A DNA stretch of 61,848 nucleotides from Nitrospirota bacterium (GCA_040753955.1 JBFMDQ010000005.1:1-61848); one strand, 5' to 3'; shown: positions 8,492 through 53,867, counted from the first letter of the stretch. The notes: generated by a model from the letters alone, not told the origin. Translations and numbers: made by a program.

Positions 8492-9325
8492 TTAAAATCT
8501 AAACCCGGTGAGAGAGCGAATAAATGCCCTTGAATTGAGTGTTTTCGTGATCATATGTTTTATATGCATGTCCATTATATCCGAAAGCTCCGAAAGAAGC
8601 ATGTTGGAAGGCCTGATTCTCTTTATCTTCGCAATGTCCCAGGTAAGAAGATCCGAGTATAGTTTTACAACTCCTCGTGAGATTCTTACGGGTGAGTCCA
8701 TCCATTTTGCACAGGCTTTACAGAGGATACAACCCCGGGATACATAAAAACAATATCCATCTCGTTGCGAGTCGATTCTGACCTTCCCACATCTTCCACA
8801 GGCATCAAGCATAGGAGCGTATCCTGTAAGCTCAAGGAATTTTATTTTATAGTGAATTACACTCAGATCTAATCCCCCCTTCCCCCCTTTAACCCTTCTA
8901 TATCCCCCCTTACTAAGGGGGGGATTAAAGGGGGGTGAGGGGGGATTATTCTCGATATCATGCAGTGTATGTAAAAGTAAAAAGTATGCCTTTTTATTTG
9001 CCTCCCTCTCGGGAATAAATTGTATGGTGAGTTCTATTATTTCTGATACCTTGAGAAAGCAACTCAGGATATCCCTTATCAATTGGAAGGGGTGGATGAT
9101 ATCCGACTGTGTCAATCTCGGAAGACTGGCATCTTCTTTGCCCCAAAATGTAATCCTTGAGTGTGTGAGTGGCTCAAGGCTACTTCCAAATCGACTTTTT
9201 GTCTTGAGTGGACTTTTCGCAAAGGTTTTGAGAAGTCCAGAATCAGGGGTAAGAAATGAGACGATAAGATCTGCCTCGCCAAAAGGAATGGTTCTTAAGA
9301 CAATACCTTCAGTCCTGTGGAGCAT
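8492..9325 (-). CDS. recO: DNA repair protein RecO with an in-frame palindrome-derived insertion
   Basis: N-terminal OB fold (GEADLIVSFLT...G); C4 Zn motif CGRC...CKAC; insert NNPPSPPFNPPLSKGGYRRVKGGKGG. Confidence 0.92.
   Translation of the reverse strand: MLHRTEGIVLRTIPFGEADLIVSFLTPDSGLLKTFAKSPLKTKSRFGSSLEPLTHSRITFWGKEDASLPRLTQSDIIHPFQLIRDILSCFLKVSEIIELTIQFIPEREANKKAYFLLLHTLHDIENNPPSPPFNPPLSKGGYRRVKGGKGGLDLSVIHYKIKFLELTGYAPMLDACGRCGKVRIDSQRDGYCFYVSRGCILCKACAKWMDSPVRISRGVVKLYSDLLTWDIAKIKRIRPSNMLLSELSDIMDMHIKHMITKTLNSRAFIRSLTGFRF
8871..8947. repeat. C/G-tract palindrome inside recO
   Basis: Outer arms 8871-8892/8925-8947; inner hairpin CCCCCCTT-ACT-AAGGGGGG. Confidence 0.85.
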
Positions 9326-9777
9326 TACATGATATTCCCGAAGTCTTCTGGTCTGAGGTTCTTAAGCCACTCCTCGAGTTCGTCTGCACTTTTTCTTTCC
9401 ATAATGCTATCTTCTATAAATATAGGGGAATTAGCCCTCAATGCAACTGCCACAGCATCACTCGGCCTTGAATCTACCAAGGTTTCTTTCTTACCATCAC
9501 TCAGACAGACAAGGGCATAATATGTATTGTCCAGAATCTCTGTCACTATGACCTTTGTTATTCTGACCTTCAGACCGTCAATAATATTCTTTATAAGGTC
9601 ATGTGTAAGGGGTCGAGGGGTCGCGACCCTCCCTAATGCAAGCGCTATTGAATCGGCTTCTGGTTTGCCGATCCATATAGGTAGTGTCCCATCTCCATCT
9701 ATTTCCTTCAGGAGGAGGATATACATACTACTACGAGGGTCAAAAAGCAGACCTTCGACCTTCATCTGGATTAACAT
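9325..9777 (-). CDS. Bifunctional nuclease family protein (DUF151)
   Basis: LPIWIG..EA.SI, PRPLTHDL and DSRPSDAVAVALR motifs. Confidence 0.92.
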   Translation of the reverse strand: MLIQMKVEGLLFDPRSSMYILLLKEIDGDGTLPIWIGKPEADSIALALGRVATPRPLTHDLIKNIIDGLKVRITKVIVTEILDNTYYALVCLSDGKKETLVDSRPSDAVAVALRANSPIFIEDSIMERKSADELEEWLKNLRPEDFGNIM

Positions 9778-9977
9778 TTATTTATACCCCAATTCCTTCA
9801 ACAATTGTTTATCATTTCTCCAGCCTTTTTTAACCCTTACCCATAACCCAAAAAAAGACCTTTGTATTGAGGAGTTTTCTATATCAATATCAATTCTTGC
9901 AGCAGTTCCTATAGATTTTAGTATCGCCCTTACCTTATTATTATACCTTTTTGACTCTCTCTTTCAACATAAATAAT
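9778..9977 (-). pseudogene. era: Frameshifted 3' remnant of GTPase Era (KH domain)
   Basis: Minus-strand pieces IYVERESQKGIII / LKSIGTAARIDIDIE / LLNTKVF / GLWVRVKKGWRNDKQLLKELGYK* in shifting frames; stop abuts the DUF151 ATG. Confidence 0.85.
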
Positions 9978-10054: not shown

Positions 10055-11254
10055 TCAAGAAAGTCTATTCACTGCCTCTCTTATCCTGTCAACGCCCTTC
10101 TTTACGTCATTTATAGGTGTTGCGTAAGACAGTCTTATGTAATCGTCATCGCCAAAGGCCTCTCCCTGCACAAGGGCAACCTTCGCTTCTTCAAGGAGAT
10201 AGAGAGATAGGTCTGATGAAGATGATATTGTTCTGTCGCCGATGGATTTGCCATAAAGCTTAGATGTGTTAGGGAAGGCATAAAAAGCCCCTGTTGGAGT
10301 AAGACAGCTCATTCCGTGGATAGAATTGAGTTCGCTGATAAGCAATCTCCTCCTCCTGTCGAATTCAGCAAGCATCATAGTGATAAAGTCTTGGGGGCCT
10401 GTGAGTGCCTCAATAGCTGCCTTCTGGGCTATGGATGTAGGATTGGATGTGGACTGACTCTGTATATTCGTCATAGCCTTTATGATCTCTCTTTGACCTG
10501 CTGCAAAACCAATCCTCCAGCCTGTCATGGCAAAAGACTTTGAGAGTCCATTTACAACTATTGTCTTTGCCTTTATCTCATTGTCGAGGGATGCAATGCT
10601 TACATGCTTAAGGCCATCATATATTAGTTTTTCATAAATCTCATCGGATATGACAAAGACTCCGTATCTGAGGACTACCTCGGCTATTTTTTCAAGTGTC
10701 TTTTTGTCATATGTAAGTCCTGTGGGATTGGATGGTGAATTCAGTATCAGTGCCTTTGTCCTCTTGGTGATATGGGATTCGACCACCTCGGGTCTGACCT
10801 TAAAGGAATCAGACTCGTATGTCTTTACAAAGACAGGAATTGCATCATTGAGCATAACCTGGTCAGGATAAGATACCCAGTAAGGCGATGGAATTAAGAC
10901 CTCATCGCCCGGATTAAGTAATGCCTGGGCGATATTATAGAGGCTGTGTTTTGCGCCACAGGAAACAATGATTTCTTCACGTGTATAATTCAGGTTATTA
11001 TCTTTCTTGAATTTCTCAATAATCGCATCCTTAAGGGGGTCTATACCTCCAACGGAGGTGTATTTTGTAAAGCCCTCTTTTATCGCCTTTATTGCAGCCT
11101 CTTTTATATTCTCGGGAGTATCAAAGTCTGGCTCTCCTACACCAAAACTAACAATGTCAACTCCCTCTGCCTTCATCGCCTTTGCCTTCGCATCTATCGA
11201 AAGAGTTGGTGATGGCTTAATCCTTTTTGCCCTCTCAGAAAGCATGGGTGTCAC
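10055..11254 (-). CDS. aspC: PLP-dependent aspartate aminotransferase, class I/II
   Basis: GVGEPDFDTP, NSPSNPTG, SDEIYE and GLSKSFAMTGWRIG motifs. Confidence 0.93.
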   Translation of the reverse strand: MTPMLSERAKRIKPSPTLSIDAKAKAMKAEGVDIVSFGVGEPDFDTPENIKEAAIKAIKEGFTKYTSVGGIDPLKDAIIEKFKKDNNLNYTREEIIVSCGAKHSLYNIAQALLNPGDEVLIPSPYWVSYPDQVMLNDAIPVFVKTYESDSFKVRPEVVESHITKRTKALILNSPSNPTGLTYDKKTLEKIAEVVLRYGVFVISDEIYEKLIYDGLKHVSIASLDNEIKAKTIVVNGLSKSFAMTGWRIGFAAGQREIIKAMTNIQSQSTSNPTSIAQKAAIEALTGPQDFITMMLAEFDRRRRLLISELNSIHGMSCLTPTGAFYAFPNTSKLYGKSIGDRTISSSSDLSLYLLEEAKVALVQGEAFGDDDYIRLSYATPINDVKKGVDRIREAVNRLS

Positions 11255-11739
11255 TACCTTAAGCCTTTAATCTTTTCCAATGTATCTATATAAATTGCTT
11301 TTTTTGTAGGATTAAGTTCTATAGCCTTAAGTGCGAGCCTTTCTGCGTCCTCAAGGTTTTCTCTCTTTATAAAATAAAGCCATGCAAGGTTATTGTAGGC
11401 ATCAGCATTCCCGGGCTCTTTTTTGATGGCTTTTTTGTAATAGAATTCTGCCTTGTCACATTCATTTTTCTGGAAATAGATGTTACCCATGTAAAGATAT
11501 GCCAGTGGAAGTTTCTTCGAAGCTCTTATATATTCCCTCAGGGCATTATCCAGTTCACCATTTTTTTCATAGGTTACACCTAAGTTAAGATGCTCTTCTG
11601 GGCTGAGAGGGTCATGAAGAACTATTATCCTTGGGAAGGTACAACCCATAAAAAATAGTAGACAGTAGACAGTAGACAGTAGACAGATTATACCCGTCAC
11701 TTTTTTATGAGCAATGTCCAGAATTTTGTTTTCTTCCAT
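11254..11739 (-). CDS. TPR-repeat lipoprotein
   Basis: Lipobox FMGC; TPR helices (HLNLGVTYE, AYNNLAWLY). Confidence 0.8.
   Translation of the reverse strand: MEENKILDIAHKKVTGIICLLSTVYCLLFFMGCTFPRIIVLHDPLSPEEHLNLGVTYEKNGELDNALREYIRASKKLPLAYLYMGNIYFQKNECDKAEFYYKKAIKKEPGNADAYNNLAWLYFIKRENLEDAERLALKAIELNPTKKAIYIDTLEKIKGLR
11657..11686. repeat. (AGTAGAC)x4 heptamer tandem in the signal peptide of the TPR lipoprotein
   Basis: Direct reading; encodes CLLSTVYCLL. Confidence 0.9.
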
Positions 11740-12785: not shown

Positions 12786-12818
12786 CCCCGTTAGAAAACC
12801 CCACCCTTTCTAACGGGG
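12786..12818. repeat. CCCCGTTAGAAA/TTTCTAACGGGG palindrome supplying the alr stop codon
   Basis: 12-bp perfect arms 12786-12797/12807-12818; same family as 37030-37118. Confidence 0.85.
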
Positions 12819-13966
12819 TTCATATATTCCTTTCTTGAGTGGCTGCCGAGGGATGTGAGTATCTCATACGGTATTGTCCTTGCTTTACATGCAAGTTCAT
12901 GGGCGGTTATTGACTCATCTCCTTGCTGTCCAAGGATAACCACTTCATCACCTTCTCTTACATCCTCGACCTCGGTAAGGTCAACCATTGTGATATCCAT
13001 ACATACTCTCCCCACAACAGGTACGCGCCTTCCTCTAACAAGCACCTCTGCATTATTAGAAAAAACTCTGTTATAACCATCTGCGTAACCCACAGGTAGC
13101 ACACCTATTTTACTCCGTCGCTTTGTTACAAATGTCCTGCCGTAGCTTATCGGGGAATCAGGCGGAAGGTTTCTTATACAGAGGATTTTTGTCTTGACCC
13201 TCATTGCTGGTATTAGGTTTATTGGTTCTGTGTTCTGTGACTTCGGCGAGCTCAGTCGAGCCGTTCTGTGCTCTGTGCTCTGACCAATAGGAGAGTACCC
13301 ATAGAGCATGAGCCCCGGCCTCACTGCATCAAGATGGGCATCCTCAAAAGCGAGGGTTGCTGCACTGTTTGCTATATGCGAAAAGATCTTTTTATTCAAC
13401 TTCTTGAATAGAGCCTCTCTTATCTTATTAAATCTTTCGAGCTGCACAGCCGCATATGACCTATCTGAAAGGTCTGCATCCGAAAAGTGGCTCATAAGTC
13501 CAGCCAGCTCTATACCCTCCATATCTGCAATTTCAACCAGATTCTCAATTAGATGGTTACTACTCAGCCCAAGTCTTCCCATTCCTGTATCTACCTTCAC
13601 GTGAACCTTTATTGTGGTTCTCCTCCCTTTCGCTACACGTGATAGGGCCAATGCGGTAGTTATGTCATGTATGACCGGTACGAGATCGAAATCAAAAAAA
13701 CCCTCGATATCTTCGCGGTCAAAAAGGACTATTATTGGTGTAGTGATACCTGCATCTCTAAGCAGTATAGCCTCACCTGTATATGCAACTGCAAGGTAAG
13801 AGACGCCCTCTTTGATCAATCTCTTTGAAATTTCTCTGCAGCCATGACCATAAGCATCTGCCTTTACAACAGCTATTACTGCACGGTCTTTAGAAACCTT
13901 TTTAACAATCTCAAGATTGTGCGCTATTGCAGAAAGATTAATCTCTGCAATCGCTCCCCTATTCAC
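12791..13966 (-). CDS. alr: Alanine racemase with a repeat-derived insertion and C-terminus
   Basis: [14 protein letters not shown]-Lys motif; ISYG, GYADG and GRVCMD motifs. Confidence 0.96.
13226..13282. repeat. (YTCTGTG) heptamer array interrupted by a 24-bp REP-like unit, in-frame in alr
   Basis: 57 bp encoding [19 protein letters not shown]; inner ACTTCGGCGAGCTCAGTCGAGCCG at 13240-13263. Confidence 0.8.
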
Positions 13967-14213: not shown

Positions 14214-14858
14214 TTATATTAAACGGGCTTGCTTTGCCCTCATCTCCTTCTCAAAATCTTCAAGGGTGTTTATATTTACAAAGGACCTCCCATCTGGATC
14301 TATCGCCCTCACCTCCTCTTCGCTTATATAAAGGACGTCTATTTTTTTTAGAAATTCCCCAAGGCTTCTGATACCTCTTCTTATGTTGTTTTCCATCTCC
14401 TTTACAAGCTTCTTTGAATATATACCCAAAAGTGGTTGGGGCTTATTATCGAAGATAGGAATTACAGCATCCCAGCTCTTTTTTGGTGACGAGTGACGAG
14501 TGACGAGTGACGAGTTTTCTGTGTTCGGCGTTCTGCATTTATCAACGATATATCTTATAAGTTCTGGCTTTATAAAGGGCATATCACATGCAGTAACAAA
14601 GAGCTCAGGAGCCTCCAGACTTACTAAGGCTGAAAGTATCCCTGTCATGGGTCCTCTATATCTCGCTATATCTCCAACCATCGGTACACCGAGGTAGAAA
14701 TAGCACTCGGGGTTATTGGTGCTTATAATAACACAATCAAAGATTCCATTGAGGAGTTCAATATTGGACTCAATGATCCTCCTGCCCTCTATCTCGAGAA
14801 ATCCCTTTATTACCGGGAGCCTTTTATTTTCTCCACCAGCTAAAATTAAGGCCTTCAC
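14214..14858 (-). CDS. mobA: Molybdenum cofactor guanylyltransferase with a repeat-derived insertion
   Basis: ILAGG..KR, GPMTGI, ACDMPF, PLLGIYS and FVNINTLED motifs. Confidence 0.9.
   Translation of the reverse strand: MKALILAGGENKRLPVIKGFLEIEGRRIIESNIELLNGIFDCVIISTNNPECYFYLGVPMVGDIARYRGPMTGILSALVSLEAPELFVTACDMPFIKPELIRYIVDKCRTPNTENSSLVTRHSSPKKSWDAVIPIFDNKPQPLLGIYSKKLVKEMENNIRRGIRSLGEFLKKIDVLYISEEEVRAIDPDGRSFVNINTLEDFEKEMRAKQARLI
14486..14515. repeat. (GTGACGA)x4 heptamer tandem in mobA
   Basis: Direct reading; part of the insert RTPNTENSSLVTRHSSPK. Confidence 0.9.
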
Positions 14859-24654: not shown

Positions 24655-24960
24655 ATGAGTTTATTTGATATTGTCAGGAAGGCACTTTTAGCAGGTTTTG
24701 GGGCTCAGGAGAAAGTAAGAGAGTTTATTGATGATCTTGTGAAAAAAGGTGAACTCAGCAAATCCCAGGGAGCGAAGCTCATAAAGACATGGACAGAAAA
24801 GGCAGATAAAGGTACCGAGCGGTTCACCAAAAATGTTTCTAATATGATAAACAAGACCCTCGAGAAGATGAATCTACCGACAAAAAAAGATATTCAGGAA
24901 TTAAATAAAAAGATTGAAGCCCTTTCAAAAAAGCTTGAGGAGAGTGAAAAGAAAGAATAG
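24655..24960 (+). CDS. Phasin-family / PhaF-like small coiled-coil protein
   Basis: KALLAGFG...DDLVKKGELS...MNLPTKKDIQEL pattern; GAGGAGG RBS. Confidence 0.7.
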   Translation: MSLFDIVRKALLAGFGAQEKVREFIDDLVKKGELSKSQGAKLIKTWTEKADKGTERFTKNVSNMINKTLEKMNLPTKKDIQELNKKIEALSKKLEESEKKE

Positions 24961-25048
24961 TCCGGGTATCTCCCAAATCCTCATCTGGTTTTAACAATTG
25001 GAAACCCTTCTGCTCAGCCTGTTTCACAAGTTTTATTTTCTCTTTCCA

Positions 25049-25825: not shown

Positions 25826-25838
25826 TGTGCCCCCTGGT

Positions 25839-26055: not shown

Positions 26056-26064
26056 TTATCGTCA

Positions 26065-38001: not shown

Positions 38002-38029
38002 TTTGTTTTCCCCCCTTTAGTTTTGTTAT

Positions 38030-38176
38030 TAATACAAACGCATTAAATGCCTTTACATCGTCATTGCGAGCGACCAACGGGAGCGTGGCAATCTCACTTT
38101 ATAAGTAGGAGATTGCTTCGTCGCCCGCCTTTGGCGGACTCCTCGCAATGACACTTTACTTAATGCGTTTGTATTA
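38030..38176. mobile_element. 147-bp MITE with perfect 17-bp TIRs and nested REP units
   Basis: TAATACAAACGCATTAA 38030-38046 / TTAATGCGTTTGTATTA 38160-38176; inner GTCATTGCGAG/CTCGCAATGAC and GCAATCTC/GAGATTGC. Confidence 0.8.
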
Positions 38177-38938: not shown

Positions 38939-39952
38939 GTGAAGAAAGAGGCATATTTATACAATAGGCTTGATGAAGGAAAGGTTATGTGCCACACGTG
39001 TCAGAGGAGATGTGTAATCTCGGAAGGGAAAAGGGGCTGGTGTCATACGAGGCTAAATGAAGGTGGGAAACTCTTCAGCCTGATATATGGAGAGGTTTCC
39101 TCACTATCAATAAACCCAATTGAAAAAAAGCCTGTCTTTCATTTCTATCCTGGCTCGAGATGGCTCTCCCTGGGAAGTGTGGGATGTAACTTTCGCTGTC
39201 TTGGCTGCCAGAACTGGGATATAGCCCATTGGAAGGAAGGACCGATGTACACGGAACACCTATCTCCAGAGGAATTGGTTTCTAAGACGAAGGCCACTCG
39301 TTCTTTAGGTATTTCGTGGACTTTCAATGAACCGGCTTTATGGTTTGAATACACCCTTGATGGGGCAAAACTTGCAAAGGCTCAAGGACTCTATACTAAT
39401 TATGTAACTAATGGTTTTATTACAGGAGAGGCCTTTGACATGATCGCGCCCTATCTTGATGTCTATAGAGTTGATATAAAAGGCTTCTCTGACAGGACAT
39501 ATCAGAGAATCGGTCACATAGAAAAGTTTAAAGGGATCCTCGAGATAGCTGAAAAGGCGAAGGAATACGGAATGCATGTGGAGGTCGTAACGAATATTAC
39601 ACCGGGATTCAATGATGACGAGAAAGAACTCCGGGGCATTGCATCATGGGTTAAAAATATCCTCGGCCCTGAAGTTCCCTGGCATGTTACAAGGTTTTAT
39701 CCCCATCTTAAGCTCAGCCATCTGCATCCAACACCTATCTCTGAACTCGAAAAGGCATGGTCTATAGGGAAAGAGGAAGGACTCTGGTATGTCTATCTCG
39801 GAAATGTCCCAGGCCACAGGTGGGAAAATACCTATTGTCATGTCTGTGGTGAACTGCTCATAGAAAGATATGTCTTTGAGATTATAAAAAATAAGCTTAA
39901 AGATAGTAGATGCCCGAAATGTAGCACTATTATACCAGGAAAATTTTCCTGA
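38939..39952 (+). CDS. AmmeMemoRadiSam-system radical SAM enzyme (PflX-like)
   Basis: N-terminal CxxC..C..C Zn domain; IEKKPVFHFYPG; CNFRCLGC SAM motif; C-terminal CxxC pairs. Confidence 0.9.
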   Translation: MKKEAYLYNRLDEGKVMCHTCQRRCVISEGKRGWCHTRLNEGGKLFSLIYGEVSSLSINPIEKKPVFHFYPGSRWLSLGSVGCNFRCLGCQNWDIAHWKEGPMYTEHLSPEELVSKTKATRSLGISWTFNEPALWFEYTLDGAKLAKAQGLYTNYVTNGFITGEAFDMIAPYLDVYRVDIKGFSDRTYQRIGHIEKFKGILEIAEKAKEYGMHVEVVTNITPGFNDDEKELRGIASWVKNILGPEVPWHVTRFYPHLKLSHLHPTPISELEKAWSIGKEEGLWYVYLGNVPGHRWENTYCHVCGELLIERYVFEIIKNKLKDSRCPKCSTIIPGKFS

Positions 39953-39958
39953 AGTGTT

Positions 39959-40125
39959 AAATCCTAAATTCTAAACAATATCAAATGACAGAAATCCAAA
40001 GTTATGATTCAGGGTATAAGAAAAGTTTTTTACATTTGAATTTGTTTAGGATTTAGACTTCGTCGTGAGCCCTCGACCTGAGCTCGGGCCGAAGGTTCAG
40101 TCGAACGACATCAGGATTCGGAATT
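39959..40125. repeat. Inverted heptamer-type element with a nested REP-in-REP insert, supplying the hel308 stop
   Basis: CTAAATTCTAAACAA 39964-39978 / TTGTTTAGGATTTAG 40042-40056 (14/15), then GACTTCGTCG...TCAGTCGAACG. Confidence 0.7.
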
Positions 40126-42264
40126 TAAAAGAGTCTGGTTTTTTATATCCTCTGCAATGGTCTTTCCCATAGCTGGCACTTTTGCGAGCTCCTCGATTGA
40201 CGCCTCTCTGATGTTTTTAAGAGTTTTATACCCTGCATCATAGAGATTTCTTGCCCTCACCCTTCCTATACCTCGCAGGGTCACGAGTGGGAGGAGTTCT
40301 TCCCTTACGCCATATATGACTCTCGTCCTCAAAAGTGACACAGCCTTTCCCCCCGCCTTCAAACTAAAGACCCTGGCTATCTCACCAGCCGAATAAAGAA
40401 GCCAATCCGAAAGCTCCACCAATGTGCGGAGGTCGCCCGGCCCTACACCAAAATGGCCGACTATCCTGTCTTCTGGCGTCTCCAGTATCCACTGCATCAG
40501 GAGAGAAGCGGTCTTAAGCTCGGAAAGAATCTCATCTGACGGATATCTTTCATCCTCGGGGATTAAAAGCTCTTCAGCGTGGGCATAGAATACTTCGATC
40601 ATCTCCCTATAGTCCTTCTTCCTCAGTTGAAGCACCATCATATCCGGTGTATGAGCTATCATATGAAGGAGAGGCAATACCTCTTTTCCCTTAGGCTGGT
40701 GCAAAGCATCCCTGATTATTAGGCCTGTCAAAGGGTCTATATAAAGCTCTGAGACGCGATGGCCAAACCTTGTGGCTGCAAATCCCCTTTTATCGGCTAT
40801 TACCATTCCCTCGGTTGCAAGAAAATCAACTATCTTATCTGTGATGGATGTGAGGTACCCAACCCCTCTCTGATAGGCAAAAAAGGTATGTTTCAGAAAA
40901 TCTATTAACTCTGCCTTGTTTCGTGTAAAGACACCTGCTATGGATGCAAGGATGTGGGACCTGAGGGCAGACTCATTGGCAAGTTGAGAAGTTATCTTTT
41001 CAGGCCTGCCAGCAATGTAATTCTTAAATAGGTTCTGTTCGTCCCTCTTATCTCGGGCTATGAGGATGGCTTCTCCATATCTATCAAACCCGGGTCTTCC
41101 CGCCCTTCCTGACATCTGTTTTATCTCGATGACAGGGATTGGACGGATTCCGAGTCCAAATTGGTACCTCCACCAATCTCGGATAATAACCCTTCGTGAT
41201 GGCAGATTCAGTCCCATCGCAAGCGTAGTGGTAGCAGCGACGAGCTTTATTTTGTTACCTCTGAAGGCATCCTCGATAAGTCTCCTCTGTGAGGAATTAA
41301 TACCCGCATGGTGGAAGGCAACACCTTTGCTTACACATTCGGCAAGTTTTTTACATAGTCGAGTTGGCTCTGGAGATGCCTCGATAACTTGCTCTGAAAG
41401 CCTTTTAAGAGATTCCTTTTCCTGCTCCTGAAGCATATCGGCAATATCCCAGGAGGCCCTACGAGCAACTGTCTCGGTTGACCTTCTTGTGTTTACAAAG
41501 ATGAGGGCTTGTCCAGCATCTTTTATAGTCTCAATGGCGAGATTTAACACATCCAGGTAGCTCACTTTCTCTATCCACTTTACAGAACCATCATTAAAGA
41601 TTACGGCACTATTAAAATAGACTCCCTCTCTGAGGGGTACAGGCCTCCAGTCAGATTCGATGAGCTGTGCATTAAGCCATGTGGCGATCTCGGCTGCATT
41701 CGGTATAGTAGCACTTAATGCTATAAACCTAAGTCCTGGATTCATCCACCTCAAACGGGTAAGGACAGCCTCAAGGGTGGGTCCCCTGTGGGAGTCTCCA
41801 AGGAGATGGATCTCATCTGCTACGACAAGGTTCACCTCCCTTAGCCATGAGGCACGATGCCTTAAGAGAGAGTCCATTTTCTCGTTTGTTGATATGATGA
41901 GGTCAGCGTTATAAAGCCAGGGATCTGCACTGTCGTAATCACCCGTGCTCTGCACTATCCTTATACCAATGTCTCTATACTTCTTTGAGAAGTCTTCAAA
42001 TTTCTCCCTAGCGAGGGCCCTTAAAGGCACAAGGTAAATAACCTTTCCTCCTGTCTTTAAAAACATCTTGAGTGCTGCTATCTCGGCGATAAGGGTCTTG
42101 CCAGATGCAGTAGGGGCTGCCACGACAAAAGAATCTCGACCTTTCAAGAGGTCTGCCTTTATTGCCAGAACCTGGGGCGGATAAAACTCCTTAAGACCTA
42201 TAGAAGCCAGAGTCTCTATGAGCCTCTCAGACCCGCCATAGGCACCTAAATCCCTTATATTCAT
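40111..42264 (-). CDS. Archaeal-type Ski2-like SF2 helicase Hel308
   Basis: APTASGKT, DEIH, SAT, FHHAG and QMSGRAGRPG motifs; C-terminal GIGRVRAR HhH domain. Confidence 0.9.
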   Translation of the reverse strand: MNIRDLGAYGGSERLIETLASIGLKEFYPPQVLAIKADLLKGRDSFVVAAPTASGKTLIAEIAALKMFLKTGGKVIYLVPLRALAREKFEDFSKKYRDIGIRIVQSTGDYDSADPWLYNADLIISTNEKMDSLLRHRASWLREVNLVVADEIHLLGDSHRGPTLEAVLTRLRWMNPGLRFIALSATIPNAAEIATWLNAQLIESDWRPVPLREGVYFNSAVIFNDGSVKWIEKVSYLDVLNLAIETIKDAGQALIFVNTRRSTETVARRASWDIADMLQEQEKESLKRLSEQVIEASPEPTRLCKKLAECVSKGVAFHHAGINSSQRRLIEDAFRGNKIKLVAATTTLAMGLNLPSRRVIIRDWWRYQFGLGIRPIPVIEIKQMSGRAGRPGFDRYGEAILIARDKRDEQNLFKNYIAGRPEKITSQLANESALRSHILASIAGVFTRNKAELIDFLKHTFFAYQRGVGYLTSITDKIVDFLATEGMVIADKRGFAATRFGHRVSELYIDPLTGLIIRDALHQPKGKEVLPLLHMIAHTPDMMVLQLRKKDYREMIEVFYAHAEELLIPEDERYPSDEILSELKTASLLMQWILETPEDRIVGHFGVGPGDLRTLVELSDWLLYSAGEIARVFSLKAGGKAVSLLRTRVIYGVREELLPLVTLRGIGRVRARNLYDAGYKTLKNIREASIEELAKVPAMGKTIAEDIKNQTLLNSES

Positions 42265-42375
42265 AAGTAAGCTTATCTCATAGGATTAAGAAATACAATA
42301 GATTAAGCCTAATCCGAGGCAATTCGCCTTTGGCGGATTGCCTGACCCAAAGTCCAAAATTTGCTAAACTAAATA

Positions 42376-43473
42376 ATGGCACAGTGCAAGATATGTAATG
42401 CTATTTCGAACTCCATCTCAAAGGAGCTCAGCATATGCCTTAAATGTATAAGGGAAAAACCTGATGATTCCCTTCCATTTGCAATGCAGGCTCATAGGAG
42501 GAGCAGGTCTGCCTTTGGGCTTCCTGAGAATCCTCCAAAGGATCCTAAGGGAGTTCCCTGCAGAATCTGCGTGAATGAATGCAGAATTCCCGAAGATGGA
42601 ACAGGATTCTGTGGATTGAGAAAAAATGAAGGAGGAAGGCTTATAGGTGTAACGGCAATGCAGGGCAAACTTTCATGGTATTATGACCCCCTTCCAACAA
42701 ATTGTGTTGGAGACTGGGTATGCCCCGGAGGGACAGGGGCAGGCTACCCAGAATATGCTTACTCACCAGGGCCTGAGATAGGATATAAAAATCTCGCAGT
42801 ATTTTTCCATGCCTGCTCTTTCAATTGCCTTTTTTGTCAGAACTGGCATTTCAAGAGGGAAACCTTACGGCCACAGACAACTTCTGTAAGTAAACTTGTC
42901 TCAGATGTTGATAAAAAGACCTCCTGTATCTGTTATTTTGGAGGTGACCCAACACCACAACTACCATTTGCACTCAGGGCATCGAGGCTTTCCCTCGAGA
43001 AGAATAAGGGAAGAATCCTCAGGATATGCTGGGAGACAAATGGCTCCATGAATAAAGCATTCCTTGATAAGATGATAGAACTCTCTCTGAATTCTGGTGG
43101 CTGTATAAAGTTTGATCTAAAGGCATGGGATGAAAATCTCCATATAGCCCTGACAGGTACCACTAATAAAAGAACCTTGGAGAATTTCTCAAGGGTTGGC
43201 GAAAAGATCAAGGTGAGACCTATCCCTCCTCTTCTAATTGCAAGCACCCTCCTTGTGCCAGGCTACATAGATGAGAAAGAGATAAGAGGCATTGCGAAAT
43301 TCATCGCCTCAATAGATCCTGATATTCCCTATAGCCTGCTTGCCTTTTATCCCCATTTTTATATGTCGGACATGCCTTTAATAACAAAGGCCCTTGCTAT
43401 GGGATGTCTCAGGGCTGCTCAAGAAGAAGGGGTCAAAAATGTGAGGATTGGGAATGTCCACCTGCTCGTATGA
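42376..43473 (+). CDS. PflX-like radical SAM protein with N-terminal Zn fingers
   Basis: CSFNCLFC motif; CKIC...CLKC and CRICVNEC...C; WETNG, KFDLKA. Confidence 0.85.
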   Translation: MAQCKICNAISNSISKELSICLKCIREKPDDSLPFAMQAHRRSRSAFGLPENPPKDPKGVPCRICVNECRIPEDGTGFCGLRKNEGGRLIGVTAMQGKLSWYYDPLPTNCVGDWVCPGGTGAGYPEYAYSPGPEIGYKNLAVFFHACSFNCLFCQNWHFKRETLRPQTTSVSKLVSDVDKKTSCICYFGGDPTPQLPFALRASRLSLEKNKGRILRICWETNGSMNKAFLDKMIELSLNSGGCIKFDLKAWDENLHIALTGTTNKRTLENFSRVGEKIKVRPIPPLLIASTLLVPGYIDEKEIRGIAKFIASIDPDIPYSLLAFYPHFYMSDMPLITKALAMGCLRAAQEEGVKNVRIGNVHLLV

Positions 43474-45767: not shown

Positions 45768-47141
45768 TTATGCACTTATATCGGTCGGGCCAAAAAGAAG
45801 ACTCGGGGCACCTACATTACCAAAAAACCTGAGGTCATCTCCTGATGCTTCTATATTTTCAAAAAAGGATAAGATATTCCCTGAAATTACTGCCTCCCTA
45901 ACAGGAAACTCTATTTCACCCCTTTCGACCCAGAGCCCTGAAACACCTATAGAGAATTCCCCTGAAATCGGATTAACAAAATGTATCCCCATCGCCTCGG
46001 TAACATAGAGGCATTTGCCAGATGCCCGGAAGAGCTCCCCGAGGCTCGCTACATCGGATTTCGAGACAGCCTCGATATACAGATTCGATATCCCGACAGA
46101 CGGAAGGCCTGAAAATCCGCTCTTCACGGCGTTGCCCGTTGATGAAACACCATCCTTCTTTGCTGTGTATGTATTATAGAGATACCCCTTAAGGAGACCC
46201 TCTTTTATCAGGGTCTTTTCCCTGGAAGACACGCCTTCATCGTCAACAGGCCTGCTCCCGAGTTTTCCTGAAAGAAGTCCGTTGTCAATAATGCTTATCT
46301 TTTGGCTGATAACCTTTCTGCCAATTTTCCCCGATAGGAGGGATTTCCCTTTCTGTACATTCTCTGATGATAGGGATGATGCGAATACCCCCATGAACTC
46401 AGCAGCCACTAAATTATCGAGGATCACAGGTGTCTTTTGAGCATTCATCCTCCTTGAACCTAGAAGCTGTGCAGCACGCCTTGCGGCATTCCGACCCACA
46501 TCCTCGAATGAGACTTCATCCAGGAATCTGGACCCTGCAAAATACCACCCCATCTGGCTATCAAGCCCATCTTCTGCCATCGCCATGATCTGTGCCGTGC
46601 ACGCTGTCGAGGAATATTGCCTATCTATACCCTTGGAATTCATTATTGTAATGTCTGTCTTTGAAAAAGTCCCGCGTGCCTTTCTAATATTTTTGATCCT
46701 TTCATCCTCTTCATATGCTGCCTTCTCCAGGAGGGAGACCCTTTTTACAGCCTCTTCTTCTCCTATCGAACTTATCCTCGGATCGAATATATCCACACTG
46801 CAGGAATCTGATCCTGAAACAAGTTCAGGATCGGGTAGTTCGAGGTACTCGTCCCTGTCAGCCCACCTCGCAGCCTCTACTGCATTATCCACAACAGACC
46901 TGATATCACCCATGTCTGTTGAATAAGAAAAACCAAGTCTTGTATCTTTAATAACACGCAGAGAATATCCAAAGCTGAGGGATGATTCAAGGGCATCTGC
47001 CTTCTGACCCTTTATCTCGATCGAGAGATTCTTTGAAGACTTTATATAAACCTCGGCCTCATCTGCATCTTTCTTCAGGGCTTTACTTACGAGATATTCT
47101 GCAAATTCTCTTATTGAGCTTGTCGAAATATCAGTCCTCAT
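45768..47141 (-). CDS. pmbA: TldD/PmbA family protein (PmbA/TldE-type)
   Basis: ADEAEVY, GYSLRVI, DDEGV, STGNA, NPISGEFSIG and GNVGAPS motifs; no HExxxH. Confidence 0.85.
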   Translation of the reverse strand: MRTDISTSSIREFAEYLVSKALKKDADEAEVYIKSSKNLSIEIKGQKADALESSLSFGYSLRVIKDTRLGFSYSTDMGDIRSVVDNAVEAARWADRDEYLELPDPELVSGSDSCSVDIFDPRISSIGEEEAVKRVSLLEKAAYEEDERIKNIRKARGTFSKTDITIMNSKGIDRQYSSTACTAQIMAMAEDGLDSQMGWYFAGSRFLDEVSFEDVGRNAARRAAQLLGSRRMNAQKTPVILDNLVAAEFMGVFASSLSSENVQKGKSLLSGKIGRKVISQKISIIDNGLLSGKLGSRPVDDEGVSSREKTLIKEGLLKGYLYNTYTAKKDGVSSTGNAVKSGFSGLPSVGISNLYIEAVSKSDVASLGELFRASGKCLYVTEAMGIHFVNPISGEFSIGVSGLWVERGEIEFPVREAVISGNILSFFENIEASGDDLRFFGNVGAPSLLFGPTDISA

Positions 47142-48242: not shown

Positions 48243-51026
48243 ATGTATATTAAAGTCTTTTATGCCCCCTTCCGGTACAGAGGGTCCACAGAGACCCTGC
48301 TTAAGGCATCAGTTGACAAAATAAAAGGCCCTGATTATTCAATAATCCTTTATATTGCTCCTACACCGAGAAAGGTGAGGGATGCTCAGCGGATATTTCA
48401 TAGACTTACTGGGGGCTGTTACATTCCTCCTGAGATGATGACGATTAAACAACTCTCAAAAAGGCTCTACTCTCTTTACGGAGACAGAAACGTCATATCT
48501 CAGCACCTCATACCTGTCGTAATCTCACAGATTTCTGGTAAAGGGATGGGCTTCGCATCCCTCATTGCAGATTTTATCAATGAGATTAAGCAGTATCATC
48601 CAGGTAAAGGTATCGAAACTATCAGAAAAGAGCTAAAGGCTATTTTTTATGAACTCGGTATCCCTGAAGGGGTCTCAAGCAGGGCGATGGAAGCTATAGA
48701 GATCTTTAAGGCATATCAAGAAATTCTGGAAAGACAGTCTGTTTTGGACGAAGATGATGTGATGGCAGTATGCCCTCGCCTGATTAAAGGGCATAACTGG
48801 AGCCCCGAGACCCTCATACTCGATGGATTCTACGAACTTACCAGTTCAGAAGAGGCAATACTGAAGGCACTGGTCGAGAATACAAAGGACATCCTTATCT
48901 CAATGCCCCATGATATTAATTTTTCAGAAATAACAAATAGTTACGGCAACTTTATAAAAAATAACTTTAGATCTGAAGAGGTCTATTTACCCTGCACCAC
49001 ACCCTTGGTGCGGGGTTTATCTACTGAGGAAAAGGCAATAGACCCCTTTTATTGTCCATATCCTGGAATGGAGGAAGAGGTTGAAGGAATTGCAAGATGT
49101 ATAAAGAACTACTTTATATCAGGAAAGATAAGGGATTTAGAAAAAATAATAGTCGCGTTCCCAAAATTATACGAATATTCAGACATAGTAGAACGCATCT
49201 TCAGAAGATATGGCATACCACACACTATCTCGGTTTCGAAGCCTGCTGGGAAGTCACAGCCCTTTCTTGACCTGATGGCCCTCCTTGAATCTGTTGTAGA
49301 TGATTATCCGAGACTTCCATTCTCCCGATTCCTTTCATCACCTTATTTTAGAAATATGCCTTCAGAATTCAGAGAATGGATTCCTATGCTCTGCCTCAGA
49401 TCAGGGATCATAAAGGGGAAAGACGCATGGCTCAACCTATCAAAGACAGTCAGCAGTCTTCCATCTAAAATCAAGAAAGGACTTAGGTGGGTCTTCAAGA
49501 AACTTGCGCCACTGGAATCTATAAAGAATAAAGGAAATTACAGCCAATATAGTAAAGTTATCGGTGATCTCTTGAATGACCTTGATTTTTCAGGTGTCAG
49601 TAGCCAGGAGGCAGATCTAAAGGAAAAGGCAATTAGCATATTGAAGGAGCTCTCCTTTATTGAAAATCTCACTCCTTATGACTCACGCCTTAAGTTTCAA
49701 GACTTACGCCAATTTATAGATGCCCTCAGGCATATTCTGAATGCCACAGATATGGAGATAGAAGGCACGGGTGTGCAGATTATGGGCTTTTTTGAGCTGA
49801 GAGGAATCGAGCCAGAATATCTTTACTTAGGGGGACTCAAGGAAGGAGACCTGCCATCAAAGCCTGATATTGACTACATATTGCCTGACAGTGTAAGGAC
49901 AAGGTTCGGCCTCATAAACCTGAAAAAATATCTACTCCTGCAGAGATTTATATTCTCAAGGACGATAGAATCAACAAAAAACCTCCACCTCTCCTATCCC
50001 GTAATGGAGGGGGATAGATTTTTCCTTCCCTCCCCATTACTCCCCTGGAATAGAGAGAAAAAAGAGCGGGTTTCGGGAATCTTCTCAAGAGAGGAAGAAT
50101 TATTGGGAAAGGGCAGAAGGCCTTTTGCATCATATATTACGGAGATAGAGGAGGTCGGGGAAAAGTTAATCAGAAATAAGTTTGGAGAAAACTCTTACAT
50201 CAGGGCCACTGACATAGACTCTTACAGGACCTGTCCGAGGAAGTTCTTTATAGAAAAAGTCCTCCAGCTTGAACCCCCGGAGACAAAGGAGTATAAGGTC
50301 GAGGCTATGCTCCTCGGAACCATAGTCCATGAAACAATGCAGCTTCTTTTATCAAAGCCCTTCGCTGACGTCGAAGACCTCAGGGTTAAGGCGGAAGAGA
50401 TAATGGAAGGCCTCCTCTCTGATAAACCTCTCGAAAATTACTGGAAGAAGCTGATTAAAGACACATTCCTTTCTATCCTGCCAGAAATATATGAGCTCGA
50501 GAGCAGCCTTATTGATGAGGGTTATTCATTTATGAAGGCTGAGTTTCCCGTTGAGGGCGAAATTATAAAAGGGATAAGACTTAAAGGAAAGATAGACAGA
50601 ATTGATAGAAAAATTCAAAATTCGAAATTCGAAGTTCGAAATTCGAAAGATGTTGTTGAGCTTGTTGATTACAAGACCGGGATAACTCAGATCAGGGGAT
50701 CACAAGTAATAACAAAAGGCGCTACTTTACAGTTATTCATCTACGCAGCATTGATGAAGTTGCTGGGATTTAAGGTAGAGCGTGTGGGCATCTATTCACT
50801 CAAAGACATAAACTTATCATGGATCCCGGGAAAGAGTGACAGGAGGGATGGACGGACAATAGAAGATTATATAGAGGCAACTCTCAGATTTCTTGAGGAA
50901 ACGATATTAAATATAAAGATGGGAAATTTTTCTGCATCTCCATTGAGTGAGCAGACATGCAGGAACTGTTCAGAAAGGCCATACTGTCCATATATACAAA
51001 AAACAGTTATAAGTTATAGGTTATAA
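48243..51026 (+). CDS. addB: AddB/RexB-like PD-(D/E)XK nuclease subunit with Fe-S cysteines
   Basis: YRTCPRKFF and CRNCSERPYC (4 Cys); GKIDRID...VDYKTG...QLFIY; degenerate N-terminal helicase-like domain. Confidence 0.82.
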   Translation: MYIKVFYAPFRYRGSTETLLKASVDKIKGPDYSIILYIAPTPRKVRDAQRIFHRLTGGCYIPPEMMTIKQLSKRLYSLYGDRNVISQHLIPVVISQISGKGMGFASLIADFINEIKQYHPGKGIETIRKELKAIFYELGIPEGVSSRAMEAIEIFKAYQEILERQSVLDEDDVMAVCPRLIKGHNWSPETLILDGFYELTSSEEAILKALVENTKDILISMPHDINFSEITNSYGNFIKNNFRSEEVYLPCTTPLVRGLSTEEKAIDPFYCPYPGMEEEVEGIARCIKNYFISGKIRDLEKIIVAFPKLYEYSDIVERIFRRYGIPHTISVSKPAGKSQPFLDLMALLESVVDDYPRLPFSRFLSSPYFRNMPSEFREWIPMLCLRSGIIKGKDAWLNLSKTVSSLPSKIKKGLRWVFKKLAPLESIKNKGNYSQYSKVIGDLLNDLDFSGVSSQEADLKEKAISILKELSFIENLTPYDSRLKFQDLRQFIDALRHILNATDMEIEGTGVQIMGFFELRGIEPEYLYLGGLKEGDLPSKPDIDYILPDSVRTRFGLINLKKYLLLQRFIFSRTIESTKNLHLSYPVMEGDRFFLPSPLLPWNREKKERVSGIFSREEELLGKGRRPFASYITEIEEVGEKLIRNKFGENSYIRATDIDSYRTCPRKFFIEKVLQLEPPETKEYKVEAMLLGTIVHETMQLLLSKPFADVEDLRVKAEEIMEGLLSDKPLENYWKKLIKDTFLSILPEIYELESSLIDEGYSFMKAEFPVEGEIIKGIRLKGKIDRIDRKIQNSKFEVRNSKDVVELVDYKTGITQIRGSQVITKGATLQLFIYAALMKLLGFKVERVGIYSLKDINLSWIPGKSDRRDGRTIEDYIEATLRFLEETILNIKMGNFSASPLSEQTCRNCSERPYCPYIQKTVISYRL

Positions 51027-51029
51027 GTT

Positions 51030-53867
51030 ATGGAAAAGTATCTGGATATAACAAAGAGTGTCATCATCTCATCCCCTGCTGGTTCAGGGAAGACAGAGAA
51101 GCTTGCAAGGCGATATGTCAGCCTATTGCTTGGCGGCTCTGAAATAGAAAAGATACTGGCAGTCACATTCACAGAAAAGGCTGCAGCAGAGATGAAGGAT
51201 AGGATACTTACTATCCTTGAAAAAGAGGATCCCGATTTATTCCTGAAGGTTCGAGAGAAGATGCCCCTTATGCGCATATCTACAATCCATGCCTTCTGCC
51301 TTAAGTTACTCAAACGTTTTTCAATAGAGCTCGGCCTCGATCCATCACTTGATGTAATAGATGAATTCAGTGCTTCCCTCCTCTGGTCAGAGTCTGTTTA
51401 TGAATGCCTGATAGAGGAGAAAAACAGCCCTGACCTCTTTTTTGAGATGATGAAAAACAGGGGCATAAAAGGCTGGGATGGCCTTTTCAGGCTCCTCAAT
51501 GAATTGCACAGCAGGAGACCTCATTCAGAGCTCTTTTTAAGAGAAAATCACCCTGTCGAGGGAGAGGAAGAAAAGAGGATCCTTGAGTTATATTCACGAT
51601 GTCTTAAACGATATACCGATAAAAAATTCGAGAGACATCTCATTGATTTTGATGACCTTGAGTTACTCACATACGAAGCCCTTATCAAAAACCCGGAATG
51701 GCAGAATATCCTTTATTCCTTTGACGAGCATACAGACCACATACTTGTGGATGAGTTCCAGGATACAAGCTCTCTTCAATGGAAGATTATAGACAGATTC
51801 ACAGAGGAATGGCGGTCAGGCATCGGTGCAAAAAAGGACTCGGGAAAGATACCAACCATCTTCCTCGTTGGAGATGAAAAACAGTCCATATATCTCTTCA
51901 GAGGTGCAAACGTGGGCGTATTTCAGGAGGCAAAGGAGAGATTTTCTGAATGGCTTGGAAGGGAATACTACTTCGAAGAAATAAGGGAAAACTATCGGAG
52001 CCTTCCTGAAATAACAAAATTTATCAACAGCCTTTTCGAAGGACTGATGCACCCTGATCCCGACCCTGAATCAAGTTCAGGGGATTCAGGATATGAAAGC
52101 TGGCGTACCAGGTACGCACCCTTTGAGGCAACAAGACAGGGTGATGGTCGTGTTGAGCTCATTCTCATGGAAGGTGGCGAAGGCACAAAGAAGAGTCGTG
52201 AGCAGGAGGCATCAGTTTTATCAAAGAGGATACAGTCCCTTGTTAATCACTATGAGATATTTGATGGGGACATGAAAAGGCCATGCATTTATGGTGATAT
52301 GGCAATACTTCTCAGAAGGAGAACCCATCTATCTATATTTGAGGATGCATTGAGGAGACATGGGATACCCTTCATTGTTGTAAAAGGTATCGGTTTTTAT
52401 GATGAACCAGAAGTTGCACTACTAAGAGAACTGCTTTCTCTTATTATCGATCCGATGGATGACTACAGCCTATTCTGTATCTTGAGGTCTCCTCTTTTTG
52501 GCATTGACTACAGGACGTTATTCAGACTGATTGATAAAACAGGTGACCGATCCTTGTTAGAGGAGATTCGATCAACAAAAAATAAAAAGGTCGGGGAGGC
52601 ACTCAATCTCATCTCGGGATGGATTGAAAGATCCAGATATACCCCCCTTGCAATGCTTCTTGAGGATGCACTTTCAGAAACAGGAGGCTGGCAATATTAC
52701 TGGGAAAAACAGAGGCATGCAAATATAAAAAAATTCATAAGGCTCATTGAACAATATGAGTCTCAAGGGTTTTCTACCCTTGATATCAGGGAAAAACTCA
52801 TCAAGGCAAGGCAGGGTGATGAGGCAAAGGCAAATATCAACACTGAGGGTATGAATGTTGTAAGGATAATGACCATCCATGCTGCTAAGGGGCTCCAATT
52901 TCCAATGGTATTTCTTCCATCCCTTGATGAGGATAACAGTCCCAGGACCAAATCCATTGTCATTGACGAAGAAGGTGGAAGGATTTCTATAGCATACGAG
53001 GAGGACCCTGCCAAAAGAAAGAAGATGGAATCTTTCTTGAAGAGAAAAGAAAAGGAACTCGAAGAAGAAAAGAGACTTTTCTATGTCGCTGTCACAAGGG
53101 CACAGGATTTCCTATGCATGCTTGGGGCATGGAAAAAGGAGAAAAAGGCCTCAGGACGACTTGCATATATTATTGATACCCTTGAACACCTCTCCTCCCT
53201 AAAAATCATGAATGAATCCCAGATAGATGAGATATACTTTACTTGTAACTCATCACTTAGCACTCATCAGCTGCCTTCAGAGCCATTCATGTCAGAACCG
53301 ATGTACACAGAGCCCATTTCGTATGAGCCTCCATTTAAATGGCGGGATGTCACAGAGGAGATAGATATAAGAGTAAGACATGGTGAGGAATGGGTCTTGC
53401 TTGGAAAGGTCTTTCACAAACTCTTTGAGGAACTCTCAAAAGGGCATATAGGGATTGATGACATAGAAAAAAGGGCATTAATTCTCTTGAGAGCCGAGAT
53501 ATACAACAAAAAAGAGGTAGAGAGAATGACGGAGATTATAAAAAGGGATTTTGAAAGGCTTTCAGTATCAGGATACCTCAAGGATATAGTTTTTCCCCTG
53601 AGGAACTCTCACGCAGAGCTCCCCTTTAACCTGCTGAAAGGAAAAACTATCTTCAGAGGCAGAATTGATAGGATTATCGTAAAGGATAATATTGCCCATA
53701 TATATGATTACAAGACCTTTCCTATAGGGGAAAAGGAATTATCGGAGCTCATTGATAAATACAGATTCCAGATGGATATTTACAGAGAGGCTGTAGAGAA
53801 GATATTCTTCTTGAGGACAAGGAGTTACCTGCTCTTTACCCACATGCCTTTGTTAGTAGAGGTGTAG
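51030..53867 (+). CDS. addA: AddA/RexA-like UvrD helicase-nuclease
   Basis: AGSGKT, VDEFQDT, VGDEKQSIY.FRGA, TIHAAKGLQFP, YVAVTRA; C-terminal GRIDR...DYKT nuclease. Confidence 0.88.
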   Translation: MEKYLDITKSVIISSPAGSGKTEKLARRYVSLLLGGSEIEKILAVTFTEKAAAEMKDRILTILEKEDPDLFLKVREKMPLMRISTIHAFCLKLLKRFSIELGLDPSLDVIDEFSASLLWSESVYECLIEEKNSPDLFFEMMKNRGIKGWDGLFRLLNELHSRRPHSELFLRENHPVEGEEEKRILELYSRCLKRYTDKKFERHLIDFDDLELLTYEALIKNPEWQNILYSFDEHTDHILVDEFQDTSSLQWKIIDRFTEEWRSGIGAKKDSGKIPTIFLVGDEKQSIYLFRGANVGVFQEAKERFSEWLGREYYFEEIRENYRSLPEITKFINSLFEGLMHPDPDPESSSGDSGYESWRTRYAPFEATRQGDGRVELILMEGGEGTKKSREQEASVLSKRIQSLVNHYEIFDGDMKRPCIYGDMAILLRRRTHLSIFEDALRRHGIPFIVVKGIGFYDEPEVALLRELLSLIIDPMDDYSLFCILRSPLFGIDYRTLFRLIDKTGDRSLLEEIRSTKNKKVGEALNLISGWIERSRYTPLAMLLEDALSETGGWQYYWEKQRHANIKKFIRLIEQYESQGFSTLDIREKLIKARQGDEAKANINTEGMNVVRIMTIHAAKGLQFPMVFLPSLDEDNSPRTKSIVIDEEGGRISIAYEEDPAKRKKMESFLKRKEKELEEEKRLFYVAVTRAQDFLCMLGAWKKEKKASGRLAYIIDTLEHLSSLKIMNESQIDEIYFTCNSSLSTHQLPSEPFMSEPMYTEPISYEPPFKWRDVTEEIDIRVRHGEEWVLLGKVFHKLFEELSKGHIGIDDIEKRALILLRAEIYNKKEVERMTEIIKRDFERLSVSGYLKDIVFPLRNSHAELPFNLLKGKTIFRGRIDRIIVKDNIAHIYDYKTFPIGEKELSELIDKYRFQMDIYREAVEKIFFLRTRSYLLFTHMPLLVEV

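Follow-up and report, generated by a model that had tools for sequence, protein, structure and literature searches.

The stretch of DNA considered here (hereafter the window) is the 61,848-nt contig C5 (JBFMDQ010000005.1:1-61848) of a groundwater Nitrospirota genome (GCA_040753955.1), in which the reading frames of several housekeeping genes run through short, repeat-derived inserts. The genome, referred to below as G000, is a metagenome-assembled genome (MAG) of 80 contigs and 1.69 Mb, and its host is a free-living, Thermodesulfovibrionales-like member of the phylum. The gene set of 1671 predicted genes (90% coding) was obtained with a crude caller based on open reading frames (ORFs) and written for this analysis; the identities of the ORFs that bear inserts are confirmed by Pfam, as follows:

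8492-9325, minus strand, RecO (Pfam)
12791-13966, minus strand, Alr (Pfam)
14214-14858, minus strand, MobA-like protein (Pfam)
40111-42264, minus strand, Hel308 (Pfam)
45768-47141, minus strand, PmbA (Pfam)
48243-51026, plus strand, AddB (Pfam)
51030-53867, plus strand, AddA (Pfam)

An initial annotation, made from the sequence alone, had proposed in-frame repeat inserts in RecO, Alr (internally and at the C-terminus), MobA, PmbA, AddB (twice) and AddA, and all of these can be read directly at their sites. The underlying units fall into five classes: tandem arrays of 7-nt units (A), nested palindromes of C-runs and G-runs (B), CCCCG-stem hairpins (C), CCTGAA-loop-TTCAGG mini-hairpins (D), and a GAGCTC-centred hairpin (E). 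Their occurrences in the window are:

8871-8947, minus strand, class B in RecO: 77-nt nested palindrome (DNA fold -28.8 kcal/mol, z = -3.8)
11657-11686, minus strand, class A in the ORF at 11254-11739: AGTAGAC heptamer array, additional to the earlier list
12786-12818, unstranded, class C at the Alr 3' end: CCCCGTTAGA hairpin (z = -6.0)
13226-13282, minus strand, classes A and E in Alr: GTTCTGT/GCTCTGT heptamers around a 25-nt GAGCTC-centred unit
14486-14538, minus strand, class A in MobA: four copies of GTGACGA, then degenerate GTTCTGT-like heptamers; reading ...TENSSLVTRHSSPKK...
40058-40128, minus strand, class E 3' of Hel308: GAGCTC-centred hairpin (40058-40110) just past the stop, and heptamer-like last five codons
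46810-46832, minus strand, class D in PmbA: GATCCTGAA-ACAAG-TTCAGGATC, with a perfect 10-bp stem (z = -5.6); reading DPELVSG
48986-49019, plus strand, class C in AddB (AddB-1): 26-nt hairpin CCCTGCACCA-CACCCT-TGGTGCGGGG, with TTTA on both sides
50609-50648, plus strand, class A in AddB (AddB-2): array of five AAATTCG units; reading KIQNSKFEVRNSK
51005-51031, plus strand, class A at the AddB/AddA junction: AGTTATA array across the AddB stop and the AddA start
52053-52093, plus strand, class D in AddA: two nested CCTGAA-loop-TTCAGG hairpins; reading DPDPESSSGDSG

The RecO insert is a palindrome within a palindrome: an outer pair (AATC6..C6TTTA/TAAAG6..G6ATT) encloses in its loop an inner C6-TTACTAA-G7 unit, and the whole reads NPPSPPFNPPLSKGGYRRVKGGKGGLD, with a predicted junction peptide of ...ENNPPSPPFNPPLSKGG... 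In a weak AlphaFold2 model built from 10 sequences (mean pLDDT 61), the insert is a coil with pLDDT below 50, lying between the helices at residues 111-126 and 148-166; the proposal that such inserts remodel protein loops is thus borne out for RecO to the extent that a weak model shows a disordered loop between helices. Within Alr, the core of the internal insert has a 26-nt perfect copy at another locus of the same-genus genome G001, and the last nine codons together with the stop (NPVRKGGVF*) fall inside the 3'-end hairpin. AddB-1 reads LPCTTPLVRG, with a predicted junction peptide of ...VYLPCTTPLVRGLST..., and the C-terminal tail of AddB is itself read from the AGTTATA array; such tails are heptamer-coded and differ among genomes. 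A C-terminal insert in Hel308, also part of the initial annotation, could not be substantiated: only the last ~5 codons resemble two heptamers, a weak match, and the clear repeats, including a MITE-like unit (miniature inverted-repeat transposable element) at 39959-40054, lie past the stop codon.

These inserts stand out from the surrounding DNA in both copy number and folding. The k-mer counts place their words at 5-26 occurrences in the 1.69-Mb genome, against ~0.2 expected per 12-mer. When folded as single-stranded DNA and compared with shuffled sequence, the inserts in RecO, PmbA, AddB-1 and AddA and the 3'-end unit of Alr fold far better than the shuffles (z from -2.7 to -6.0); the internal MobA and Alr inserts, which are built of heptamers, do not stand out in this way.

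Across the genome, the families were counted with family-specific patterns, since single-linkage clustering of repeat regions chained unrelated families together. The five classes combined place at least one element in 139 of the 1671 genes (~8%, about one gene in twelve) and in 127 of the 1076 genes of at least 200 aa, with two or more elements in 28 genes. Both the existence of at least five unrelated families and the genome-wide reach claimed in the initial annotation therefore hold. Class A is the most numerous, with 200 arrays of at least three copies, compared with 14 each for periods 6 and 8; these arrays comprise 101 unit types, peak at 31-34 nt in length, and lie inside genes in 106 cases, distributed over 89 genes. 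Class B comprises 50 cores, 41 of them genic (82%) and spread over 40 different genes, where they always read PPL-x-(K/R)-GG. Class C, consisting of hairpins of 26-45 nt with direct TTTA(C) flanks, shows the opposite placement: 60 of its 76 copies are intergenic, in a genome whose non-coding share is just ~10%, and 16 are genic. Class D accounts for 28 copies (14 genic), each adding 15 nt, and class E for five copies of 25-26 nt plus the diverged copy in Alr, with two lying within heptamer arrays. The ends of the hairpins differ between classes (TTTA|CCCCG, AATCCCCCC and (GAT)CCTGAA), and CCTGAATCAAGTTCAGG recurs identically at no fewer than 11 loci.

Classical MITEs of 120-245 nt are abundant in the same genome, yet are nearly excluded from genes (0-12%); their target duplications measure 5-9 bp, and the 6-, 8- and 9-bp duplications imply that several transposase families have been at work. 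Within the window, a 145-nt MITE of the GTCATTGCGAG... family (38027-38171), with TATTA duplicated, is a clean insertion absent from G001. A composite CCCCG-type element at 37030-37118 is flanked by TGTA...TAAA, of which only TA is repeated, unlike the TTTA(C) of most copies.

Comparison with relatives revealed that the inserts are restricted to the lineage. Relative to G001, which is collinear with the window at ~92-96% identity, the RecO insert is absent (a net 66 nt), as are the internal Alr insert (39 nt, where G001 retains a decayed array of ~3 units) and the MobA insert (51 nt, with the same array present at three other G001 loci). AddB-1 is a clean 30-nt insertion with TTTA duplicated, missing from G001 and from all eight other orthologues. 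By contrast with these cases, which G001 lacks, the hairpin at the Alr 3' end is present in G001 as well, and the PmbA insert is common to both congeners and absent in five other genera (+15 nt). At the AddA site, five genera have 21 nt, G001 has 36 nt and G000 has 51 nt, which amounts to two steps of +15 nt, and the second hairpin is situated in the loop of the first. The AddB-2 insert is family-old, occurring in G000, G001, G003, G006 and partly in G010, while G004, G017 and G021 lack it. Its heptamers have changed in step between the congeners, every unit being altered alike (GAAATTC versus AAAGTTC), with 10 changes in 39 nt inside a gene that is 93% identical at the protein level; judged from the aligned arrays, this difference is concerted evolution. 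The RecO loop measures 33 nt in four genomes, including G001, and holds C/G palindromes, whether still intact or decayed, in eight others, where their position is identical, with at least 2-3 changes for each of these states on a weakly resolved tree.

Taken over all sites, no insert was found in order-level relatives, and those that G001 does not lack are genus- or family-old; conservation in distant orthologues, which would have spoken against the initial annotation, is not what the comparison shows. The inserts are thus neither shared with distant orthologues nor one-off accidents; the loops that carry them are hot spots. An ancient conserved linker was considered and rejected, given that the inserts are lineage-specific and that the same DNA occurs at unrelated loci.

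Some further differences were recorded at or near these sites. The PmbA of G013 (L166) carries the same CTGAACTTGTTTCAGG hairpin, reading ELVSG, ~25 codons upstream of the site shared by G000 and G001, as an independent hit. At the AddB-2 position, the AddB of G001 (C91 ~22452-22590, L018) contains an extra in-frame block of 138 nt (+46 aa), composed of CTCGTCA heptamers, five copies of the 13-mer CTCCCCGGCCTCA and two of GCGAAGCGGGGCAGGC. Hel308 and its flanks (39922-42376, ~2.45 kb) are absent at the syntenic site of G001, which has ~36 nt instead; the borders of this segment are small repeats, namely the MITE-like unit at 39959-40054 and the GAGCTC hairpin at 40058-40110. The ~1.6-kb segment at 24927-26552 (ORFs 25049-25825 and 26065-26547) likewise has no G001 counterpart, with ~40 nt between the flanks instead. 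Two further segments, 56225-59096 and 30473-33942, are 73% and 84% identical to G001 versus 93-96% in their flanks, a drop in identity that suggests allele replacement or transfer.

The initial annotation had also proposed testing whether lengths divisible by three are enriched in coding sequence, and they are. Over the ~314 kb that could be aligned to G001, lengths divisible by three account for 21 of 27 coding indels of at least 9 nt versus 28 of 81 non-coding ones (Fisher p = 1.2e-4). The same holds for class C when the hairpin is taken together with its 4-nt duplication: 13 of 16 genic copies are multiples of three versus 19 of 60 intergenic copies (p = 5e-4). This coding enrichment is the signature of a selection filter. 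Of the 106 genic heptamer arrays, 94 contain no stop on the coding strand, compared with 30 of 106 for the other strand. Alr offers a further piece of arithmetic, in that its 25-nt hairpin and two extra heptamers (14 nt) add up to 39 nt; this suggests that slippage of an array can restore the reading frame, although with Alr as the single example it stands as an idea and not as a result.

The mode of spread appears to differ between classes. Class C is flanked by direct TTTA/TTTA or TAAA/TAAA in 34 of 76 copies and by inverted forms in two; three comparisons of filled and empty sites display a 4-5-nt duplication, and in one filled/empty case the hairpin has entered the TTTAC loop of a genic C/G palindrome. 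The direct flanks and the duplications together indicate that the CCCCG hairpins behave as true transposable mini-elements of 26-45 nt. Nesting is general, with a palindrome in a palindrome loop in RecO, a hairpin in a hairpin in AddA, hairpins within heptamer arrays, and arrays adjoining arrays. New units land by preference in repeats already present, whether hairpin loops or heptamer arrays. Many of the differences between G000 and G001 swap one repeat block for another and are not clean insertions, and heptamer arrays are exchanged for unrelated arrays at orthologous sites.

Based on these observations, we consider it probable that the inserts are copies of several unrelated, very small, mostly hairpin-forming repeat families that have established themselves in this genome and across its bacterial family. 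Several mechanisms fit the data better than one mobiliser. Insertion would distinguish little between coding and non-coding DNA, at any rate in the case of the C/G palindromes, whose genic share of 82% compares with a coding density of 90%. Purifying selection would then retain only those events that total a multiple of three, add no stop codon to the coding strand, and lie in surface loops, linkers or termini that tolerate them; such selective retention in permissive sites would lead to hot-spot loops being hit repeatedly. The hairpin classes may be moved in trans by enzymes encoded elsewhere than next to them, whereas slippage and gene conversion, and not a transposase, probably account for the spread and turnover of the heptamer arrays. 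With respect to the overall interpretation offered in the initial annotation, the families, the genome-wide extent and the lineage specificity stand, and the part that finds no support is one in-trans mobiliser for all units, because the classes behave differently: class C has transposon-like flanks, the heptamers evolve in concert, and hot spots undergo replacement.

Several points weigh against this interpretation. No mobiliser is tied to any of the families. The RecO event replaces 22 nt by 88 nt, and, given how many differences are replacements, patchwise recombination or gene conversion could account for some of what is seen. The gene calls come from the crude ORF-based caller, the indel comparison covers ~314 kb of G001 only, and the poor resolution of the RecO tree means that gains and losses there cannot be polarised. 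Translation of the inserts is presumed from their intact frames, and the RecO structure model is weak (mean pLDDT 61).

The search for a mobiliser bears directly on the rival explanations. Consistent with the initial annotation, which reported neither a transposase nor a REP-associated tyrosine transposase (RAYT; REP, repetitive extragenic palindrome) in the window, no Y1 transposase was found there. The genome as a whole contains five divergent Y1/HUH paralogues of ~320 aa whose tail is a DnaA_C-like helix-turn-helix; all five exceed the PF01797 cut-off, and these proteins are nearest the REP-associated tyrosine transposase model NF047646 (75.5 and 52 bits, cut-off 80). The suggested search for mobiliser genes thus succeeded for RAYT-like Y1 genes and failed for the other candidates: the genome contains no reverse transcriptase, no DUF559 and no IS630-type DDE_3, other DDE families not having been searched and the MAG possibly lacking its insertion sequence (IS) copies. 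A solo GGGTCAAACCT at 683-693 of the window matches the inverted repeat that flanks two of the RAYT-like Y1 genes (C2, C25).

One could suppose that a single structure-specific enzyme, most plausibly a RAYT-like Y1/HUH protein, moves all small hairpin classes in trans, as RAYTs move REPINs. The five Y1_Tnp paralogues, closest to the RAYT model though under its cut-off, would supply the enzyme, and the preference for hairpin loops as targets would suit proteins that act on single-stranded DNA. Y1 counts and C/G palindrome counts are correlated among 41 relatives (rho 0.48); however, the coefficient falls to 0.15 within the bacterial family, and the genomes richest in Y1 (22, 18 and 17 copies) hold 0-1 palindromes, so that the correlation arises only through phylogeny. 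Moreover, the inverted repeats flanking the Y1 genes have just 2-6 genome copies and belong to none of the amplified families, neither the GTAG nor the CGTC tag of known REPs is present on the hairpins, direct TTTA(C) flanks are atypical for HUH transposition, and stems and loops are wholly different between classes. We therefore regard a single enzyme as unlikely. More credible, yet still short of an even chance, is the view that the heptamer arrays and 15-nt CCTGAA hairpins arose and spread in situ and without transposition, through replication slippage, gene conversion between arrays, and template switching that turns quasi-palindromes into perfect ones; this would be compatible with the colonisation by several families favoured above. 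The 101 distinct units among 200 arrays, the concerted unit change between G000 and G001 at AddB-2, the replacement of arrays by unrelated ones at orthologous sites, and the CCTGAA or TCAGG half-sites already held by the basal AddA and PmbA of other genera all speak for it. Nevertheless, the empty MobA site of G001 is devoid of GTGACGA even though identical arrays of 31-33 nt lie elsewhere in both genomes, and CCTGAATCAAGTTCAGG is identical at its many loci; copying between loci is accordingly needed in any case.

The segments might instead be fast-evolving linkers, functional low-complexity loops, or regulatory DNA or RNA structures maintained by selection and not selfish at all. Retention of the AddB-2 insert in several genera, variability of the RecO loop in most genera, and the potential of the Alr 3'-end hairpin to act as a terminator are in keeping with such a function. 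We nonetheless find it very improbable, as unrelated genes and intergenic DNA share these nucleotide sequences, inserts are missing from a congener that is 92-96% identical, and the peptides are dictated by the palindrome, with PPLxKGG in 40 genes. That the inserts are assembly or binning artefacts could be imagined for an 80-contig MAG with N-runs adjoining repeats, and we judge the chance of this to be negligible. Logan contigs, which derive from independent assembly, cover all sites in X1, probably the source sample, with zero differences and a depth of ~155-167x. Contigs from other studies also reach the junctions: those of X2, a biofilm, run across the right-hand junction of the insert in RecO and all of the AddB-1 insert, and X3 has a RecO allele without the insert. 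Related inserts are present at the same loops in other genomes as well. Since independent contigs reproduce the inserts, an assembly artefact, the other outcome that would have undone the initial annotation, is excluded as far as contigs can show.

With regard to wider distribution, among 25 genomes from the bacterial family 19 contain the core of the C/G palindrome, versus 3 of 16 from other families of the order, and G000 has the highest copy number, with 28 versus 7 in its congener by genome comparison. Many Cyanobacteria, Planctomycetota and other Nitrospirota also contain the exact 19-mer, for the most part within long open frames, and the C6-TTA(C/G)TAA-G6 core is present in many cyanobacteria. 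Several cyanobacterial and planctomycete copies (loci L020-L138) are lopsided, with two C-runs and one G-run, and some cyanobacterial contigs carry tandem arrays of 4-6 cores at a spacing of 33-36 nt. The heptamer excess recurs in G001 (64 arrays in 449 kb) and in a sample of the family (8 in 82 kb), and 47 kb sampled from other families yielded 0 arrays. The AAATTCG (50610-50648) and GTGACGA (14486-14518) arrays match dozens of unrelated contigs in runs X2-X5 from groundwater and biofilm, with a summed depth of up to ~4200, indicating that these heptamer types are widespread in the community.

A bolder reading, to which we assign a low probability, is that an insertion system targeting hairpin loops operates across phyla (Nitrospirota, Cyanobacteria and Planctomycetota) and moves units of 15-45 nt, with heptamer arrays serving as landing pads and frame compensators and RAYT-like Y1 proteins with a DnaA_C-like tail as drivers. 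As seven leaves a remainder of one when divided by three, slippage by one or two units would, under such a system, rescue insertions whose length is not a multiple of three. If it were true, these 15-45-nt units would be among the smallest mobile DNAs known.

Among described systems, the closest in behaviour are the RPE of Rickettsia (Ogata et al. 2000), which a later account presents as palindromic selfish DNA of ~100-150 bp inserted in frame in housekeeping genes, with 44 RPE insertions reported for R. conorii (PMC10969869). The two share several palindromic families placed in frame in unrelated housekeeping genes, tolerance of the extra peptide, and the lack of an adjacent transposase. They differ in that the Rickettsia host is an obligate intracellular bacterium whereas ours is a free-living groundwater Nitrospirota, and in that the units here measure 15-90 nt, affect ~139 genes and include heptamer arrays in the mix. 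REP, BIME and REPIN elements are similar as GC-rich hairpins of 20-40 nt in many copies, and RAYT-like genes are present in the genome (PMC3116915; PMC3733652). One end of a REP bears a conserved tetranucleotide, GTAG or CGTC, and REPs have been reported within genes for replication and repair, recB among them (PMC3733652); the sites in RecO, AddA and AddB echo this. In contrast to REPs, the hairpins here bear neither tag, no amplified hairpins flank the RAYT-like genes, direct TTTA(C) repeats adjoin the CCCCG hairpins, and the C/G palindromes are 82% genic; the extragenic bias of REPs is matched by the CCCCG hairpins (60/76 outside genes) and not by the C/G palindromes (41/50 inside). MITEs, which are DDE-derived, resemble our elements in their target-site duplication (TTTA(C) at the CCCCG hairpins) and non-autonomous spread, although the in-gene units here are far smaller (26-45 and 15-21 nt) and no parent IS was found in a search confined to DDE_3.

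The heptamer arrays and their nested hairpins have their nearest parallel in cyanobacteria, where Elhai et al. reportedly described, in 2008, the STRR heptamer repeats together with small dispersed repeats (SDRs). STRRs are tandem heptamers of many unit types, dispersed and mainly intergenic, in heterocystous cyanobacteria, and SDRs are hairpin units of ~20-30 nt nested within heptamer arrays and other repeats. The Nitrospirota arrays are likewise short tandem arrays of 7-nt units, of many types and genome-wide (200 arrays, 101 types), and, compared by description, the hairpin units nested in them and in other repeats resemble SDRs. They differ in phylum and in the 106 of 200 arrays that lie inside genes. 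SDR-like repeats have been stated not to be found outside Nostocaceae (PMC5861425). Our literature search found nothing on the C/G palindrome sequence, its peptides, or heptamer repeats in Nitrospirota. What is new relative to the known systems is thus the host, the unit size of 15-90 nt, the genic share of the arrays, the TTTA(C) duplication, and hairpins with neither a GTAG/CGTC tag nor linkage to a RAYT.

These elements have practical consequences, in that they interfere with aligning orthologues, delimiting domains and calling genes in MAGs, and create spurious "hypothetical proteins" such as the PPLxKGG peptides; conversely, they offer natural maps of permissive insertion sites in conserved proteins. 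Our findings would widen the Rickettsia picture of in-gene selfish DNA beyond reduced intracellular genomes, and would connect it with the unexplained heptamer and SDR repeats of cyanobacteria. If the inserts are translated, core cytoplasmic enzymes of recombination, cell-wall precursor and cofactor synthesis, and proteolysis in a free-living bacterium would tolerate the continual gain and turnover of 5-35 extra residues in specific loops.

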